Part shown: positions 9,536 through 16,673 of the stretch, one piece after another | How the letters are laid out: the number at the start of each line of letters is the position of its first letter | Position numbering within the stretch: the first letter of the stretch is position 1 | DNA from: Clostridia bacterium | GTDB taxonomy: Bacteria; Bacillota; Clostridia; Christensenellales; UBA1242 | Assembly: GCA_017964105.1 (NCBI GenBank) | Contig: JAGCSP010000003.1 | Coordinates: forward strand, 1-31,020 | Length of the DNA: 31,020 nucleotides | Direction: 5' to 3' | Notes under the pieces: generated by a model | Databases searched by the model: none | The model's input: only the letters and a program-made list of their open reading frames with translations | Told to the model about the DNA's origin: nothing | Translations under genes and position numbers: made by a program

Positions 9536-11673
9536 TGGACAAAAAGACATTTGACATAATTGACCTTGATTGCGCTGCATGTAGTGTAAAGATAGAAAAA
9601 GCAATTAATGGTTTTGACGACATTGATGAGTGTGTGCTAGATTTTATTGGCAAAAAATTATATGTTACACCTGCAAGAGAATTTGAAAGCGACGCTGCGC
9701 TTATTGAATGGCTAGAAGATATTGTACACATATTTGAATCAGAAGTACATTTGGTGCTTGCTGATGAAGAAACTAAACAAGAAAAGAAGAAAACAAATTT
9801 CTTTAAATCCCAAGCTTTTGAGTGGACCAAAATTGGTGTTGGTTTTGTGACTATTGTTTTATTGCTTACCCTAAACCTTAATTTTTGGATTCAACTTGGC
9901 GTAGGTCTTGCAGTATATTTGCTTGTTAGTTATGATGTAATTATAAAAACTTTTAAAAAGATAACAAAAGGCAACTTTTTAGATGAAAATTTCTTGATGA
10001 CTGTTGCCACCATCGGCGCACTTGCATTGCAAGAGTTTAGTGAAGCGCTAGGTGTCATGGTGCTATACAAAATTGGTGAGATATTCCAAGATTATGCATT
10101 GCAAAAAAGTAGAAAAAATATTATTGACTTAATTAACTTAAAGGCAGAACATGCAACATTACTTAGAGATGGCGAAGAGCATACTTGCAAACCAGAGAAA
10201 TTGCAAGTTGGCGATATAATCTTAATCAAAAAAGGTGAGCGTGTGCCTGTAAACTGTGCCGTTATTGGAGGTAGCACTTATGTAAACACAGTTGCACTTA
10301 CTGGCGAAACCAAATTAAAAACAGTATATCCAGATGATGTGCTCCTAGGAGGATACATTGTGGATGGGGCGCCTGTGCGTGCACGCGTGATTGCTGAATA
10401 CAAGAATAGTGCAGTGGCACGTATTTTGGACCTTGTGGAACATGCAACTAGCAAAAAAGCAAGAGCAGAAAAATTTATTAGTAAATTTGCTCGTGTGTAT
10501 ACACCAGTAGTAATGGGGCTTGCACTTGTTACAGCATTTATTCCACCAATTTTTGTGGGTAATATTAGTACTTGGATATATAGGGCATTATCATTCTTAG
10601 TAATTTCATGTCCATGTGCAATAGTGATATCTGTTCCGTTGACTTATTTTGGCGGCATAGGTATTAGTGCAAAAAATGGATTACTTATAAAAGGTGCAAG
10701 CACACTTGAAACTCTTGCATCAGTAGATACAGTAGTTGTAGATAAAACAGGAACACTTACAAAAGGTGTGTTTGAAGTGCAAGAAGTGTACAACACAGAT
10801 AGTTGCACGCGTGATAACTTAATTAAGTTTATGTGTTATGCAGAAAGTGGTAGTAACCACCCAATTGCAAAAAGCGTGATGAAACTATATTCAGGCAAAA
10901 TATTCCAAAGCAAAATATTTGAATACGACGAAGTAATTGGCCTTGGTATTATGGCAGTAATAGAAGGCAAACAAGTACTTTGTGGCAATGAAAAATTATT
11001 AAAGAAAAATAATATAAAGTTTAAAGCATGTGACAAGCCTGGCGTTGTTGTATATCTAGCAATAAATGGCGAATATGCAGGCTATGTGCTTATTTCAGAC
11101 GCATTAAAAGAAAATGTGAAATATGATATTGAAACTATTAAATCAGTTGGCGTAAAACACATAGTAATGCTAACAGGTGACACTGACGATATTGCAAGTA
11201 GTGTTTCTAAAGATCTTGGAATTAATGAGTATTATGCTAATTTATTGCCAGAAAACAAAGTGGAAATATTACAAAACATATTAAAAGACGGCAAGGGCAA
11301 AGTTGCATATGTTGGTGATGGTATTAATGATGCGCCTGTGCTTATGCTTAGTGACGTGGGTATTGCAATGGGTAAATTTGGTCAAGATGTTGCTATTGAA
11401 GCAGGTGATGTAGTGCTATTAAACGATACATTATCTAGCATCACTAGTGCAATTAAGATTGCAAAACGCACACGCCTTGTGAGTGTGGTAAATGTTGTGT
11501 TTGCCCTAGGTGTTAAGGTGGCCATCATGATAATGGGTGTATGTGGTATATCTAGTCTTTGGTGGGCAGTTATTGGCGATGTGGGTGTATCCATTGTGGC
11601 AATACTTAACGCAATGACAATGTTACTATATAAACCAAATAAACAACAAATACAAAAAGACACTAGCAAATAG
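9535..11673 (+). CDS. cadA: Heavy-metal P1B-2-type ATPase (Zn/Cd/Pb exporter, CadA/ZntA-like)
   Basis: Start at ATG 9535 overlapping the arsR stop (TAATG). CAAC metal-binding domain, TGE, CPC, DKTGTLT, HP and GDGINDAP motifs, plus K and DVG in the last two TMs. Confidence 0.93.
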   Translation: MDKKTFDIIDLDCAACSVKIEKAINGFDDIDECVLDFIGKKLYVTPAREFESDAALIEWLEDIVHIFESEVHLVLADEETKQEKKKTNFFKSQAFEWTKIGVGFVTIVLLLTLNLNFWIQLGVGLAVYLLVSYDVIIKTFKKITKGNFLDENFLMTVATIGALALQEFSEALGVMVLYKIGEIFQDYALQKSRKNIIDLINLKAEHATLLRDGEEHTCKPEKLQVGDIILIKKGERVPVNCAVIGGSTYVNTVALTGETKLKTVYPDDVLLGGYIVDGAPVRARVIAEYKNSAVARILDLVEHATSKKARAEKFISKFARVYTPVVMGLALVTAFIPPIFVGNISTWIYRALSFLVISCPCAIVISVPLTYFGGIGISAKNGLLIKGASTLETLASVDTVVVDKTGTLTKGVFEVQEVYNTDSCTRDNLIKFMCYAESGSNHPIAKSVMKLYSGKIFQSKIFEYDEVIGLGIMAVIEGKQVLCGNEKLLKKNNIKFKACDKPGVVVYLAINGEYAGYVLISDALKENVKYDIETIKSVGVKHIVMLTGDTDDIASSVSKDLGINEYYANLLPENKVEILQNILKDGKGKVAYVGDGINDAPVLMLSDVGIAMGKFGQDVAIEAGDVVLLNDTLSSITSAIKIAKRTRLVSVVNVVFALGVKVAIMIMGVCGISSLWWAVIGDVGVSIVAILNAMTMLLYKPNKQQIQKDTSK

Positions 11674-11683
11674 TGCCTTTTTT
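11654..11683 (+). terminator. Intrinsic terminator after the ATPase
   Basis: AAAAAGACACTA-GCAAA-TAGTGCCTTTTTT, overlapping the stop codon. Confidence 0.7.
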
Positions 11684-11687
11684 GTTG

Positions 11688-11716
11688 TTGACAAGATTGA
11701 GTCGTAGTGGTATTAT
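11688..11716 (+). promoter_or_regulatory. Sigma70-type promoter with extended -10, upstream of the leader peptide
   Basis: TTGACA 11688-11693, 17 nt, TGgTATTAT (-10 at 11711-11716). The predicted +1 falls at or next to the ATG at 11723. Confidence 0.8.
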
Positions 11717-11722
11717 TTAGGT

Positions 11723-11758
11723 ATGAAAAACATTAAATCCCAACAACAACAATACTAA
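11723..11758 (+). CDS. Putative leaderless attenuator leader peptide MKNIKSQQQQY
   Basis: ATG AAA AAC ATT AAA TCC CAA CAA CAA CAA TAC TAA. The ATG is 6 nt after the -10 box, and the Gln codons overlap segment 1 of the attenuator. Confidence 0.72.
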   Translation: MKNIKSQQQQY

Positions 11759-11858
11759 GCAAGTTGTGTATAAGAGTCCTTATGCATAACATTTTTGTTG
11801 TTTTAAGGATGATATAAATAAATTACTTTGTCCTTGAAACATGTTTCAAGGATTTTTT
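11737..11858 (+). promoter_or_regulatory. Transcription attenuator (1:2 pause hairpin, 2:3 antiterminator, 3:4 terminator)
   Basis: 1:2 = ATCC 11737-11740 / GGAT 11807-11810 plus AACAACAA / TTGTTGTT 11795-11802, enclosing a 12-bp hairpin (11763-11790). 2:3 = TGTTTTAAGGA 11799-11809 / TCCTTGAAACA 11831-11841 (11 bp, one G:U). 3:4 = 11831-11840 / 11843-11852 followed by TTTTTT. Confidence 0.78.
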
Positions 11859-11908
11859 GTTTGTAAAATATAATTATTTTGATAAAATAATTTATGTAGG
11901 AGTAAGAT

Positions 11909-13912
11909 ATGAAAAGTTTTAATGATGTAAAGCTAGAAAATATGATTGCACATCGTCCAAAATTTCCAAAGCGTGCAATGATTACATCTGGTATGCCAAA
12001 TGGCAATAAGTATTTGCATATTGGCCATGCAATGATGTGGGTGCACACTGATATTTTTGCACGTTTTATGCGTGATAGAATTGGGTATGACAATGTGTTA
12101 CATGTGTCTGGCACAGATAGCTTTGGAAGTCCTGTGGAAGAAGGATATCGCAAAGCTATAGAGGCTGGCGAGTTTAAGGGTACAATAAAAGAGTTTGCTT
12201 TATCCAAAAGACAATTTCAAAAAGATACATTTGAGAAATATGAAATTGGTATAAATTTGTATTCTGGTTCTTGCACAGATGAGGCAGTGCCTTTGCATGA
12301 AGAGACAGGTGCATGGATTTTTAATACTTTGCGTGAAAATGGTTTTATGAATAAACTTTCCACATATCAATTTTATGACGAAAAGTTAGGAATATTTCTT
12401 AATGGTAGGCAAGTAATTGGTAAGTGTCCAATAGATGGATGCACAGGTGAAAAAGGATATGCAGATGAATGTGACTTAGGTCATCAATATATGCCTAGCC
12501 AATTGATTGACCCTGTGAGTGTGTTGTCTGGTGAAAAACCAGTTTTGAAAAAAATTGACAACTGGTACTTTGACCTTCAAAATCACACAGATTTATTAAA
12601 AGATTGGGTAGAATATCTAAAAAAGAATACAAAAACACGTGAAAGCGTGATAAAAACAATTGAAGAGTTTTTAAAGAAACCAGAAATATATATCAAAAAA
12701 GAATACGAAAATGAATTTGAAAATGTAAAATTTTTGCTTCCAACTTTTGAATATAAAGATGATACAAAAAGTAGTTTTACCATTGTATTTGACAAGCTTG
12801 AAGATAGAGAAGTGGCATGCGAAATGCTTACAGATGCGGGCATTAGATATCGTACTGGCAAAACACTTGTACCATTTAGACTTACCGGCAACTGCGAGTG
12901 GGGTTTGAAATGTCCAAAAGAAGCGGGCGATAACTTGACATTTTGGGTGTGGCCAGAAAGTCTTTGGGCACCTATTACATTTACAAAGCAATGGTTAATA
13001 TCACAAGGTAAACCAAAAGAAGATTGGCGCAAATATTGGTGTGACAAAGATTGCCAAGTATATCAATTTATTGGTGAAGATAATATTTATTTCTATGGCC
13101 CTGCGCAAACTGCAATGTGGTTCTGCATGCAAGGAAAAAATCCTAGTGTAAATATACCAGATGGAAATTTAACAATTCCTCAAATTGTCAGTGATAAGCA
13201 CTTGTTGTTCTTAGGTAAAAAAGCAGGCAGCAGCAGTGCAGTAAAAGCACCACTTGCGCATGAATTATTGAATTATTACACTCCTGAGCAATTGCGTATG
13301 CACTTTATGGGTATGAATGTAATAAATAACCCAGCAAGCATATTCCCAAAACCATTAAACCCAGATGCTGATCCAAATGAAGTGGATCCTGTGGTACGAG
13401 AAGGCAATTTGCTTACAAATGTATTTAATAGAGTGCTTAGAAATCTTTGCTACACATGGCAAAAAGATTTTGATGGATTTATGCCATATGGCACACCAGA
13501 TGAAGATATAATTAAAGAAGGTGAACTTAGTTTACTAAAATATGAAAAACTTATGAGCGAGCAAAAACTTCATATGGTGAGCTATGAACTTGACACATAT
13601 ATTAGAAATATCAATAAGTATTGGGCAAAATATTCAGTGGAATTTGATAAAGACAAAGAGAAAGAAAAACAAGTAATAATCAATACACTTCACATGGTGC
13701 GTGTGGCAATGTTAGAATTACACCCAGTGGCACCTGTTGGTGTGGAAAATTTGGCTAAATTTATGGGAATTAGTAGTGAAGTGTTTAAATGGGAAAATGA
13801 AGACAAACTTATTTATGACTTTATTGAAAATCCAAAGCATCACAAACCAACATTCTTAAATCCAAGAGAAGATTTCTTTACCAAGCATCCAAGTCAATTT
13901 GAACAAGAATAA
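11909..13912 (+). CDS. Divergent class Ia aminoacyl-tRNA synthetase of the MetRS fold; amino-acid specificity uncertain
   Basis: HIGH motif, GTD..GSP, zinc knuckle CPIDGC...EC..GH, VW and FIGEDN motifs, KMSKS equivalent KKAGSSS, and N.FNR in the anticodon-binding helix bundle. AGGAG SD at 11898-11902. Confidence 0.85.
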   Translation: MKSFNDVKLENMIAHRPKFPKRAMITSGMPNGNKYLHIGHAMMWVHTDIFARFMRDRIGYDNVLHVSGTDSFGSPVEEGYRKAIEAGEFKGTIKEFALSKRQFQKDTFEKYEIGINLYSGSCTDEAVPLHEETGAWIFNTLRENGFMNKLSTYQFYDEKLGIFLNGRQVIGKCPIDGCTGEKGYADECDLGHQYMPSQLIDPVSVLSGEKPVLKKIDNWYFDLQNHTDLLKDWVEYLKKNTKTRESVIKTIEEFLKKPEIYIKKEYENEFENVKFLLPTFEYKDDTKSSFTIVFDKLEDREVACEMLTDAGIRYRTGKTLVPFRLTGNCEWGLKCPKEAGDNLTFWVWPESLWAPITFTKQWLISQGKPKEDWRKYWCDKDCQVYQFIGEDNIYFYGPAQTAMWFCMQGKNPSVNIPDGNLTIPQIVSDKHLLFLGKKAGSSSAVKAPLAHELLNYYTPEQLRMHFMGMNVINNPASIFPKPLNPDADPNEVDPVVREGNLLTNVFNRVLRNLCYTWQKDFDGFMPYGTPDEDIIKEGELSLLKYEKLMSEQKLHMVSYELDTYIRNINKYWAKYSVEFDKDKEKEKQVIINTLHMVRVAMLELHPVAPVGVENLAKFMGISSEVFKWENEDKLIYDFIENPKHHKPTFLNPREDFFTKHPSQFEQE

Positions 13913-14019: not shown

Positions 14020-14757
14020 ATGAGACTAATAGATGAAATACAGTGCGGAAACATTATTTGTGGCGTAGCAAAAAATAAGGTAGACATTGAAGCTGCCGAA
14101 AAATTACGCTATGATATGCTTCTTATGGATTTTAATACAGAAAATACAAATACTAATGCTACAGATAAAAGTGAATATGATGATATCTGTGAGCATTTGA
14201 TTGCAATAGATACCGACACAAACGAAGTGGTTGGTACTTATAGAGTGCTAGCTAGCAACAAATTGCCAAAAGGTAAAATGTGGGTAACTGAGCATGAGTT
14301 TGATATTTCAAATTTAAGAAATTGTGGCGAAGGTATTGTGGAATTATCTAGGGCAGTAGTGCATACTGATTATCGTAATGGTTCAGTTATCAAAATGCTT
14401 TGGAAGGCATTATTTAACTACGCAGTAAAATATAATATTAGGTACTTGTTTGGTACAGCAAGTTATCATGGGGTAGATAAATCAAAGTACACCAACTCAT
14501 TTGCTTGGTTAAATGATAAATATTTAGTTGATGATGCTTTATCTTGCTCACCAATTGAACACACTGTTGCATTTGGCAATAGTTATGATTTGGAAAAGGC
14601 AAAAGATGAAACACCATCGCTTATCAAAGGATATCTTGCTATGGGCTCCAAGGTAACCAAAGGCGCATACATTGACTACGAGTTTGGTAGCATTGATGTG
14701 CTTACCATATTAGATTTGAAAAATGTAAGTAGGGTATTTGAGAGAATTATAAAATGA
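14020..14757 (+). CDS. OlsB-like GNAT N-acyltransferase (Acetyltransf_5; ornithine/amino-lipid synthase-like)
   Basis: LRY, D.YD..CEHL, VGTYR, EFD, ELSRAVVH..YR.G, LW, LFGTAS, P.LIKGYL..G and D.EFG..DV follow the OlsB pattern. Confidence 0.8.
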   Translation: MRLIDEIQCGNIICGVAKNKVDIEAAEKLRYDMLLMDFNTENTNTNATDKSEYDDICEHLIAIDTDTNEVVGTYRVLASNKLPKGKMWVTEHEFDISNLRNCGEGIVELSRAVVHTDYRNGSVIKMLWKALFNYAVKYNIRYLFGTASYHGVDKSKYTNSFAWLNDKYLVDDALSCSPIEHTVAFGNSYDLEKAKDETPSLIKGYLAMGSKVTKGAYIDYEFGSIDVLTILDLKNVSRVFERIIK

Positions 14758-16673
14758 AATACAACAAAAAGAAATTATACTTAATAATTCCAATAGTGCT
14801 ATTTTTGGGATTGCTTGCAATATTCATAAAAGATATTATTCAAATGCTCCCACTAATTAAAAACGCAGATGAAGAAAGTGTTCGTGCAGCGCTTAGCACA
14901 CTTGGGCCAAAAGGTGCAATTGTGATAGGTTGCATTGTGGCTGTGCAATTACTCATAGTATTTATGCCATGCGAATTTATGGAAATTATGAGTGGTGTGG
15001 CATATGGTCCATGGTGGGGCACACTAATTTGCCTAACTGGAGTAATAGTTGGTGCAAGCTTGATATATGCACTAATTAACGTGTTTAATGTCAAATTAGA
15101 GGTACTTTTTGCCAAAAGCAAAAGTTATGAAACAATTTCAAAATTGTCACGAAGTACAAAATCAATAGGTAAATTATTACTTATACTATTTTTCTTGCCT
15201 GCAATTCCACTTGGTGTAATATGTTATTTTGGTTCCACCACAAACCTAAAATATCATTGGTACATTCTAATAACTGCAATTGGTGCATTGCCAAGTATTG
15301 TTATTGATACTGTTCTTGGTCATGTGTTTGTGGCAGCAATTGGCAAGTACTTTTGGTGGATACTAATAGCAGTTGTGTTATTTGCAGTGATTGCAATGTG
15401 GCTTGTAAAACTCTACACAACAAAGAAAATGAATATTGCACTATATGGCACAAAAAACCCAACGGTAGATATGGTGCTAGATAATCATAAACCAAGCTCA
15501 CCAAAGGTAACACATATTTGGTTCTTAACAAGAGTGGCAAGACACCTAAAACGCAAATATAATGTAAAAGTAAATAATGAAGAAACAAAAAATCTAAAAG
15601 ATCCTTTTATTGTACTTAGTCCACATGGGTGTTGGGCAGATTTCTTGCTAACATTCCTTGCAATCAAACCTTACAAAACGCACATCATGATGAATGCATA
15701 TTACTTGTACAATAAAAAGACTCAGGGAATACTTCTTGATACAGGCGTAATTCCTAAAAAAATGTTTGCTAATGACTTAAAATCAATCAAAGATTGTATG
15801 GCTGTAGTAAAAAATGGTGAAAGCATTCTTATGATGCCAGAAGCACGACTAAGTATTGATGGAGCAAATCAACCATTTGCACATGGCCTTGGCAAACTTA
15901 TAAAGAAATTAAACATACCAGTAATTACAATTGAATCTCATGGCGCATACTTATCTATGGCAAAGTGGGTGGAAACAAAACGCAAAGGTGCAATTGAAAT
16001 TACCACACATTTAACCTTGACCCCAGAAAAGATACAAGAACTAAGTGCAGACGAAATTGATGATATTTGCGCAAAAGCACTTGCATTTAATGATTTTGAA
16101 TGGGTAAAAGATTCGCCATATGTGTTTAAGGGCAAAAACATGCTAGAAGGCGCAGAAAACCTAATATACAAGTGTCCAAAATGTGGTCATGAATATACTC
16201 TAATTGCAGATAAAAACACAATTACATGTACACACTGCGGTTTGCAAGTGAGTATGAATGGAAAGTATCAATTTATCAATCCATATGGCAATATTCACAA
16301 CTTGCAAGATTGGTATAAGTACCAAAGAGTAGAAGCACAAAAGGTATATGATAGTGGCAACTTCAAATTGGAAACAGAAGTGGTTTTGAAAACATATGAC
16401 GACTATGGTAAAGGTATAGTGCCAGTTGGCGAAGGAAAGTGCGTGCTAGATAAAGATGGCTTGCGTTATGATGGCACATTCAAAGGCGAAGAGCATCATT
16501 TAGCTATACCTGCCCACGCAATGCAAGCATTGCCATTTGGTTGCGGTGAAGATTTTGAAACGTATTGGGATAATATCTTTTATTATTTTGTTCCAAAAGA
16601 AAATAAAGCACAATGCGTGCAATGGGGAATATATAGCGACATTATGATACAAAATGCTAAAAAAGATGAATAG
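14754..16673 (+). CDS. Fusion protein: VTT/DedA (TVP38-like) membrane domain + PlsC-type acyltransferase + zinc ribbon
   Basis: N-terminal VTT pattern (P.E...I.SG..YGPWWG...G...GA.L.Y). HX4D motif (HGCWAD) and PEARLS block. CPKC...CTHC zinc ribbon. Confidence 0.8.
   Translation: MKYNKKKLYLIIPIVLFLGLLAIFIKDIIQMLPLIKNADEESVRAALSTLGPKGAIVIGCIVAVQLLIVFMPCEFMEIMSGVAYGPWWGTLICLTGVIVGASLIYALINVFNVKLEVLFAKSKSYETISKLSRSTKSIGKLLLILFFLPAIPLGVICYFGSTTNLKYHWYILITAIGALPSIVIDTVLGHVFVAAIGKYFWWILIAVVLFAVIAMWLVKLYTTKKMNIALYGTKNPTVDMVLDNHKPSSPKVTHIWFLTRVARHLKRKYNVKVNNEETKNLKDPFIVLSPHGCWADFLLTFLAIKPYKTHIMMNAYYLYNKKTQGILLDTGVIPKKMFANDLKSIKDCMAVVKNGESILMMPEARLSIDGANQPFAHGLGKLIKKLNIPVITIESHGAYLSMAKWVETKRKGAIEITTHLTLTPEKIQELSADEIDDICAKALAFNDFEWVKDSPYVFKGKNMLEGAENLIYKCPKCGHEYTLIADKNTITCTHCGLQVSMNGKYQFINPYGNIHNLQDWYKYQRVEAQKVYDSGNFKLETEVVLKTYDDYGKGIVPVGEGKCVLDKDGLRYDGTFKGEEHHLAIPAHAMQALPFGCGEDFETYWDNIFYYFVPKENKAQCVQWGIYSDIMIQNAKKDE

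Follow-up and report, generated by a model that had tools for sequence, protein, structure and literature searches.

A probable glutamine-codon attenuator with an apparently leaderless leader peptide upstream of a MetRS-like gene in Clostridia

In Bacillota and Clostridia, the T-box is the expected control of synthetase genes. How, then, is a tRNA ligase gene controlled when it is preceded by a short ORF with a run of glutamine codons? This question was raised by a MetRS-like gene of a Clostridia bacterium (UBA1242, Christensenellales). The window, that is, the whole stretch of 31,020 nt that was analysed, corresponded to positions 1–31,020 of contig JAGCSP010000003.1 (assembly GCA_017964105.1, forward strand), and all positions below are those of the window.

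A first-pass annotation of the sequence had pointed out that no T-box motif was visible at this locus, in a lineage expected to use T-boxes, and had proposed ribosome-mediated attenuation from a leaderless micro-ORF. Searches with RF00230 and with all Rfam families gave no match at the locus; this was so for the gathering score and also when E values up to 10 were admitted. Three T-boxes were present in the window genome, two of them before thrS and pheST. The proposal of ribosome-mediated attenuation was supported by comparison with related genomes, through a coding signature, alternative helices, and an association with Gln-tRNA genes. Judged from these sequence comparisons, the leader is very probably a transcription attenuator in which the ribosome senses glutamine codons.

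Promoters, leader ORF and alternative pairings

The gene upstream of the leader encoded a heavy-metal P-type ATPase (stop codon 11671–11673) and ended in a terminator-like hairpin (11654–11682, + strand). This hairpin, a palindrome between T runs that was listed on the - strand, parts the ATPase gene from the leader promoter. Its stem was retained with altered bases in genome G007. The leader promoter (11688–11716, + strand) consisted of TTGACA (11688–11693), a 17-nt spacer, and a TG-extended -10 element (TGgTATTAT, hexamer at 11711–11716); it scored 11/12 in the promoter scan, with the TG present. From this geometry, transcription was predicted to start at or adjacent to A11723.

The first-pass annotation had described an ATG lying 6 nt after the -10 hexamer, without a Shine-Dalgarno (SD) sequence, and opening the peptide MKNIKSQQQQY*. 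This ATG was located at 11723, and there was no space for an SD. The 5′ leader therefore held a short ORF with start signals, namely the ATG and its spacing from the -10 hexamer. The ORF (11723–11758, + strand) would have no 5′ UTR and comprised 11 codons (ATG AAA AAC ATT AAA TCC CAA CAA CAA CAA TAC TAA), including four CAA codons (11741–11752, + strand) as the proposed sensing codons.

The window genome was scanned for further cases of this geometry. When a promoter was defined as a match to TTGAYW-N16-18-TAnnnT ending 6 nt before an ORF, strong promoters at this distance opened six ORFs of at least 100 aa, versus 1–3 at neighbouring distances. This small sample hints that leaderless genes exist in the genome. 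The six ORFs, of 153–716 aa, lay exactly 6 nt past the promoter match on contigs C12, C27, C46, C60, C77, and C81 of G000, and their transcripts are candidates for leaderless mRNAs. Among the micro-ORFs lying 6 nt after strong promoters in the genome, no second convincing leader peptide was found, and the genome scan for further Gln-run micro-ORFs was swamped by out-of-frame runs within genes.

The RNA pairings described in the first pass were all recovered. Segment 1 (11737–11752, + strand) was formed by ATCC (11737–11740) and the CAA run (11741–11752). Segment 2, UUGUUGUUUUAAGGAU (11795–11810, + strand), could serve as partner either of segment 1 (anti-antiterminator) or of the terminator 5′ arm (antiterminator). 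Pairing of the CAA run with TTGTTGTT (11795–11802) and of ATCC with GGAT (11807–11810) had been claimed, and both pairings were possible as stated. The claimed 11-bp antiterminator, between GTTTTAAGGAT (11800–11810) and GTCCTTGAAAC (11830–11840), contained 11 pairs including three G-U pairs. The terminator stem of 10 bp was also present; it spanned 11830–11853, was followed by TTTTTT, and had its 5′ arm, segment 3, at 11830–11840. An intrinsic terminator (10-pair stem and U tract, 11830–11859, + strand; -9.2 kcal/mol alone) thus separated the leader ORF from the structural gene, and an AU-rich spacer lay between segment 2 and this terminator.

Between segments 1 and 2 lay a 12-pair hairpin, unmentioned in the first pass, followed by a U-rich run, AUUUUUGUUG (11763–11790, + strand). 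The 3′ arm of this middle hairpin, UCCUUAUGCAU, was invariant in the type A leaders (the window, G007, L062, L083, L080, and L079) and similar to the terminator 5′ arm (UCCUUG). A role of the hairpin and U run as a first terminator was set aside, the 3′ arm being invariant and the hairpin lying in every type within the 1:2 helix; pausing, or action as a decoy, would be the better fit. In the model, the hairpin may cause pausing. It could also be melted by a ribosome that has reached the stop codon, freeing UCCUUAUGCAU as a decoy to capture AAGGAU.

The 150-nt leader was strongly structured, with a folding energy of -39.7 kcal/mol versus -21.5 ± 3.3 kcal/mol for 200 shuffles (z = -5.6).

Conservation of the leader in related genomes

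Including that of the window, 22 leaders of this design were found in MAGs of Clostridia from rumen and gut, whose genomes measure about 1 Mb. Besides the type A leaders, they comprised the type B leaders, which carried an SD (L078, L066, L210, L081, L216, and L218), and the further leaders L249, L250, L252/L304, L253/L308, L289, L302, L306, L309, L310, and L254. The further leaders were located by scanning of upstream regions and by covariance model R1, which was built from six leaders and run on 150 family genomes. Most genes encoding proteins 62–89% identical to the window's MetRS-like protein in other assemblies were preceded by a leader built in this way, and the neighbourhoods of these genes were unrelated. 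In the family sample, a Gln-run ORF was present in 9/22 readable upstream regions of the paralog.

All 22 leaders had a start codon, an ORF of 9–14 codons with 3–5 in-frame Gln codons near its end, and a stop 0–4 codons after the run. The related leader peptides included MKTMKIQQQQQR, MKNVKIQQQQR, MKTLVILQQQW, MNSILLQQQQNIIF, MTIVLLQQQQSF, MKVKNIFKQQQQF, MINFAQQQQQ, and MKITFKFQQQQSF. The non-Gln residues and most of the RNA sequence differed among the relatives, and only the Gln run near the end of the ORF was constant. Within the run, CAA and CAG interchanged at several positions (for example CAA CAA CAG CAA CAG, CAG CAG CAG CAA, and CAA CAG CAA CAA CAA); therefore it is the amino acid or its tRNA that is conserved and not the CAA repeat. 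No Gln-run ORF was found before 30 glnS genes of the family or before 26 other paralog loci of the window's genus. Such an ORF was present in 22/22 leaders, with the run conserved as codons, versus 0/56 control upstream regions. The canonical glnS genes of congeners also lacked a Gln-run ORF upstream; together with the 30 family glnS genes, this showed that the leader is not general for glnS. It had been stated in advance that orthologous leaders keeping the pairing and losing the frame and the Gln codons would speak against attenuation, and the opposite was seen. The expectation that Gln codons and three alternative helices would recur in orthologous upstream regions was borne out despite differing sequences.

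The start signals varied while the ORF was kept. In 13/22 leaders the -10 hexamer lay exactly 6 nt before the start codon, without an SD, and the -35 hexamer was usually 17 nt farther upstream; the six intervening bases varied (ttaggt, ttacgt, agaatc, caaagt, catagt, aaagtt, and others). The start codon was ATG in 12 of these leaders and GTG in one (L310), the latter a point against the reading. Seven of the 22 leaders had a 5′ UTR of 20–25 nt that carried GGAG or AGGAG at a typical spacing, and two were assigned to neither start class. Translation of the ORF is indicated most strongly by this exchange of leaderless and SD-led starts around a retained ORF.

These observations bear on a very improbable reading, in which the CAA run and its partners form an RNA-only switch whose direct binding partner is a ligand, a protein, or, in the manner of a T-box specifier, tRNA-Gln, and the ORF is incidental and untranslated. 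The double use of the CAA run as a pairing partner, the strong structure of the leader (z = -5.6), and the tRNA-binding T-box used by the orthologs of genus g29 are in keeping with such a switch. It would leave the coding features unaccounted for: the start, in-frame Gln run, and nearby stop in 22/22 leaders, the SD acquired at the right distance in seven, the fixed spacing of 6 nt between -10 hexamer and start codon in 13, and the CAA/CAG changes that preserve the amino acid. The consensus fold of type B left part of the invariant run unpaired in a loop, and thus pairing alone cannot explain the conservation of the run. No T-box sequence or other Rfam family was detected in the leader. Translation of a glutamine-coding ORF is therefore the preferred reading.

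The alternative helices were conserved in outline. RNAalifold, applied to types A and B separately, gave an "off" state consisting of the segment 1:2 helix, the middle hairpin, and the terminator, with compensatory pairs in the middle hairpin (alignment pairs 41/72 and 45/70) and in the terminator (124/133 and 126/131). The antiterminator core AAGGAU:AUCCUU was present in 6/6 type A leaders with only wobble-compatible changes. The logic was plainest in type C, where two copies of CAAGCAAC, one within the ORF and one in the terminator arm, were alternative partners for GUUGCUUG.

Switching was modelled by folding transcripts that ended before the terminator 3′ arm, with or without a ribosome footprint masking the Gln run. 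As naked RNA, most type B and type C leaders retained the 1:2 helix. With the footprint on the Gln run, segment 2 moved to the terminator arm in both of these types, as it did in the leader of the glnS gene at L254. This switch between anti-antiterminator and antiterminator occurred in most relatives, and L083, L080, L079, and type C folded as the attenuation model requires. In the window leader, mutually exclusive antiterminator and anti-antiterminator structures involving the regulatory codons could form, and the most stable fold of the naked RNA included the antiterminator from the outset; default termination would therefore have to depend on folding order and not on stability, which weakens the case at this locus.

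A second promoter-like site, TTGTAA-16-TGaTAAAAT (11861–11888, + strand; 9/12, TG present), likewise unmentioned in the first pass, lay between the terminator and the MetRS-like gene and was similar to the plain promoters of leader-free congeners. It may provide basal expression of the gene independent of the switch, and it could leave the switch as a minor contributor at the window locus. Together with the completeness of the unit upstream (promoter, about 135 nt, and terminator), this site would suit an independent small RNA or micro-protein unit, with the MetRS-like gene expressed only from 11861–11888. Such an arrangement is highly unlikely. In L062, in L083, in types B and C, and before glnS, only 10–30 nt parted the terminator from the SD of the regulated gene; for L062, L083, and type B in particular, a site like 11861–11888 had no room. 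These leaders must be the only 5′ region of their genes, because no promoter would fit between terminator and SD. The leader always preceded a Gln-tRNA-related synthetase gene, in differing neighbourhoods, its peptide was not conserved outside the Gln run, and an antiterminator overlapping the terminator would be useless in a free-standing gene. A regulatory leader of the downstream gene is thus favoured.

The distribution of the leader was narrow, which counts against the attenuation reading. Most paralog genes lacked it, including those of all congeners except G007. Within the window's genus, it was found beyond the window only in near-identical G007, with three CAA codons versus four, and a DNA similarity search with the leader in 41 genus genomes returned this genome only. 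Because G007 differed by one CAA unit, the length of the Gln run varies among close strains. A loose pattern scan of species genomes gave at least 120 chance matches, none of them upstream of a MetRS-like gene, and a stricter scan of species representatives gave only two type A genomes that were already known. The sampled sequence words of this DNA were absent from the listed metatranscriptome runs. Contigs from four sequencing runs over the leader showed no indels and a few single-base strain differences, with A>T at 11761 in one strain. In one metagenome run, the contigs broke between the CAA run and its UUGUUG partner (window 11751–11805).

A weak covariance-model match (E 1e-5) was obtained at L251 (G245:C2, reverse strand, about 1500–1640). 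Here an ORF of leaderless geometry, MEFRNLNQQEF, and a terminator preceded two genes, one for a DppA-like aminopeptidase and one whose product faintly resembled glutamine synthetase. L251 may represent a divergent form of the leader or a chance match.

The MetRS-like paralog and its link to tRNA-Gln

Downstream of the leader, an SD (AGGAG, 11898–11902, + strand) preceded the gene of a 667-aa MetRS-like class I tRNA ligase paralog (11909–13912, + strand). The protein scored 225 bits (cut-off 587) and 172 bits (cut-off 336) against the metG models, below both cut-offs, while the canonical MetRS of the same genome, on contig C38, scored 499.6 bits, above the cut-off. The two proteins were 27.5% identical. 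The paralog carried the MetRS-type Pfam domain PF09334 and an intact HIGH motif; the KMSKS position was degenerate, KKAGSSS, within GKKAGSSSAVKA (residues about 436–447). Compared with the MetRS of the same genome, it had an insertion of ~80 residues (about 240–320) and retained the zinc-knuckle cysteines. Its relatives were annotated as "class I tRNA ligase family protein" of uncultured Clostridia. Searching the whole genome with the glnS model TIGR00440 gave a sole match (E 5.9e-6, 45 model positions), on contig C17 and not to the paralog. The first-pass reading was corrected on one point: by sequence, the regulated gene was no recognisable Gln enzyme, and it was a MetRS-like paralog.

After a gap of 107 nt, the MetRS-like gene was followed by an OlsB-like N-acyltransferase and a PlsC-like acyltransferase fusion (window 14020–16673). 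The neighbours of the paralog in relatives were very different (rpmB, tmk, and YitT-like genes), and therefore the aminolipid genes at 14020–16673 probably have no functional tie to the paralog.

Three lines of evidence, which are independent of the leader's own reading, tied the paralog to tRNA-Gln. First, a canonical GlnRS gene (TIGR00440, 490 bits; cut-off 425.8) of genome G285 was preceded by L254, a leader located via the covariance model. L254 was leaderless, encoded MKKLQQQQQ, and could form the same set of alternative helices.

Second, the paralogs of g29, a GC-rich genus, had a T-box upstream, which scored 69–78 bits (E 1e-13 to 1e-15), below the Rfam gathering score. At loci L225–L229, it lay about 260 nt upstream of the paralog (for example L226:1159–1415). 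The specifier loop read GAA-CAG-G, and its closing stem covaried (AAGG:CCUU versus GAGG:CCUC). The specifier reading was calibrated on T-boxes of the window genome, where thrS gave ACC and pheST gave a Phe codon (UUU/UUC). To our knowledge, glutamine-specific T-boxes have rarely if ever been described.

Third, GlnRS and the paralog excluded each other. Among 41 genomes of the genus, 27 had the paralog, 13 had GlnRS, and none had both; in the family sample of 151 genomes from 58 genera, the paralog was present in 49, GlnRS in 74, both in none, and neither in 28, and as related genomes are not independent, no P value is given for these counts. At least 13 genera of the family contained both GlnRS species and paralog species. 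Across the order, GlnRS was nearly universal (188/201). Predictions made for nine genomes of the genus from the GlnRS and GatB results held in 9/9 cases. GatB was missing in eleven paralog genomes of the genus, and several paralog genomes that were 95–100% complete had no GatB; in g18, four paralog genomes of 99–100% completeness had neither GlnRS nor GatB. Two genomes with neither GlnRS nor the paralog were checked for GatB, and both had it. The exception was g29, in which the paralog, GlnRS, and at least one GatB occurred together. In the window genome, no GlnRS or GatB was found in the assembled 87%.

Through the glnS gene with the same leader, the CAG T-box, and the exclusivity of GlnRS and paralog, the regulated gene was thus indirectly connected with charging of the sensed amino acid. 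The paralog is probably the enzyme serving tRNA-Gln in the window genome. The degenerate KMSKS position and the presence of GlnRS beside the paralog in g29 speak against this. Beyond this genome, it is rather likely that the MetRS-fold paralog represents a third route to Gln-tRNA(Gln), in which a class I, MetRS-derived enzyme charges tRNA-Gln directly and has displaced GlnRS many times, with the leader or the CAG T-box as feedback sensor. The setting of this displacement appears to be one family of small-genome rumen and gut Clostridia.

The same evidence bears on what the attenuator would sense. The tRNA that reads CAA usually has a modified wobble uridine. An attenuator that responded to translation capacity or to wobble modification of tRNA(UUG), and not to Gln-tRNA charging, would draw on this modification and on the fact that any slowing of ribosomes on the ORF would yield read-through. 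Very little weight was given to this alternative: the run was specifically Gln, it tolerated CAG, a codon that another tRNA can read, the regulated genes were GlnRS or its apparent substitute, and the T-box of the orthologs by design senses uncharged tRNA-Gln. Sensing of Gln-tRNA charging is hence retained.

The canonical glnS genes of three congeners (L233, L234, and L244, in G017, G006, and G009) had a conserved leader of ~120 nt with strong self-complementarity, GGGGUAAGUUU ... AAACUUACCCC, in which no T-box and no Gln-run ORF was found. This leader may be another cis-regulatory RNA.

Proposed mechanism and comparison with known systems

From these comparisons we infer the transcription start, translation of the ORF, leaderless initiation, ribosome stalling, the part played by the middle hairpin, the response to Gln-tRNA, and the activity of the enzyme. 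In the proposed mechanism, the RNA would start at or adjacent to the A of the AUG at 11723, would thus be leaderless, and would have its 11-codon ORF translated. With ample Gln-tRNA(Gln), the ribosome would clear the four CAA codons, reach the UAA, and leave, after which segment 1 (AUCC and the CAA run) would bind segment 2 (UUGUUGUU...GGAU). The 1:2 helix would allow the terminator at 11830–11853 to form, and most transcripts would end near 11859. With charged tRNA-Gln scarce, the ribosome would stall on the CAA codons and cover segment 1; segment 2 would then pair with the terminator 5′ arm (11 pairs), and read-through into the MetRS-like gene would follow. The timing of release would matter, because the CAA run stays covered for as long as the ribosome sits on the stop codon. 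The product of the MetRS-like gene would most likely supply Gln-tRNA(Gln), closing a homeostatic loop, as pheM does for pheST.

The mechanism is of a known kind (pheM, trpL), and its glutamine version, its leaderless form in Clostridia, and its target are new to the literature searched. That search, which did not cover all journals, revealed no glutamine-codon attenuator, no leaderless leader-peptide attenuator in Clostridia and none with a MetRS-like target, and no MetRS-like GlnRS or Gln-specific T-box on glnS.

If the reading holds, glutamine would be added to the amino acids read by leader-peptide attenuation, and such a device would stand before a synthetase gene in Clostridia, where T-boxes are expected. 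One gene family would be controlled in three ways, by a T-box or by a leader peptide that is either SD-led or leaderless; this series would be natural material for the study of how regulatory solutions are exchanged in evolution. Taken together, the leader, the CAG T-box, and the exclusivity with GlnRS also label genes annotated as "class I tRNA ligase family protein" as probable Gln-tRNA-forming enzymes, in genomes that otherwise appear to be without one.

In E. coli pheM/pheST, a short Phe-codon-rich leader ORF, alternative hairpins, and an intrinsic terminator control a synthetase gene. The window leader resembled this system in its codon run of one amino acid, its hairpins, and its terminator before a tRNA-charging gene. 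It differed in its Gln codons, its low-GC Clostridia host, the MetRS fold of the enzyme, and an ORF that apparently opens the RNA, with no SD before it. With trpL, hisL, leuL, thrL, and ilvL of Proteobacteria it shared the 1:2, 2:3, 3:4 logic with regulatory codons in segment 1 and a possible pause hairpin, whereas its target was a tRNA-charging gene and not a biosynthetic operon, and an extra hairpin lay between segments 1 and 2.

Leaderless short-ORF attenuators are described for Actinobacteria, namely the mycobacterial polycysteine sORFs (bioRxiv 10.1101/834739) and the uORF of Corynebacterium ilvBNC (PMC10272879, PMC11857589). There, a codon run in an ORF at the transcript 5′ end is reported to control downstream genes by amino-acid supply. 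Those lineages use leaderless mRNA very widely, whereas the window lineage belongs to Clostridia, its relatives swap leaderless and SD-led versions, and termination would proceed via a clear intrinsic terminator.

With the T-box (RF00230), which is carried by the g29 orthologs, the leader shared its apparent purpose of providing more synthetase when the cognate tRNA is uncharged. The window leader differed in having no Stem I, specifier loop, or T-box sequence, and its sensing is proposed to operate through the ribosome and not by direct binding of tRNA.
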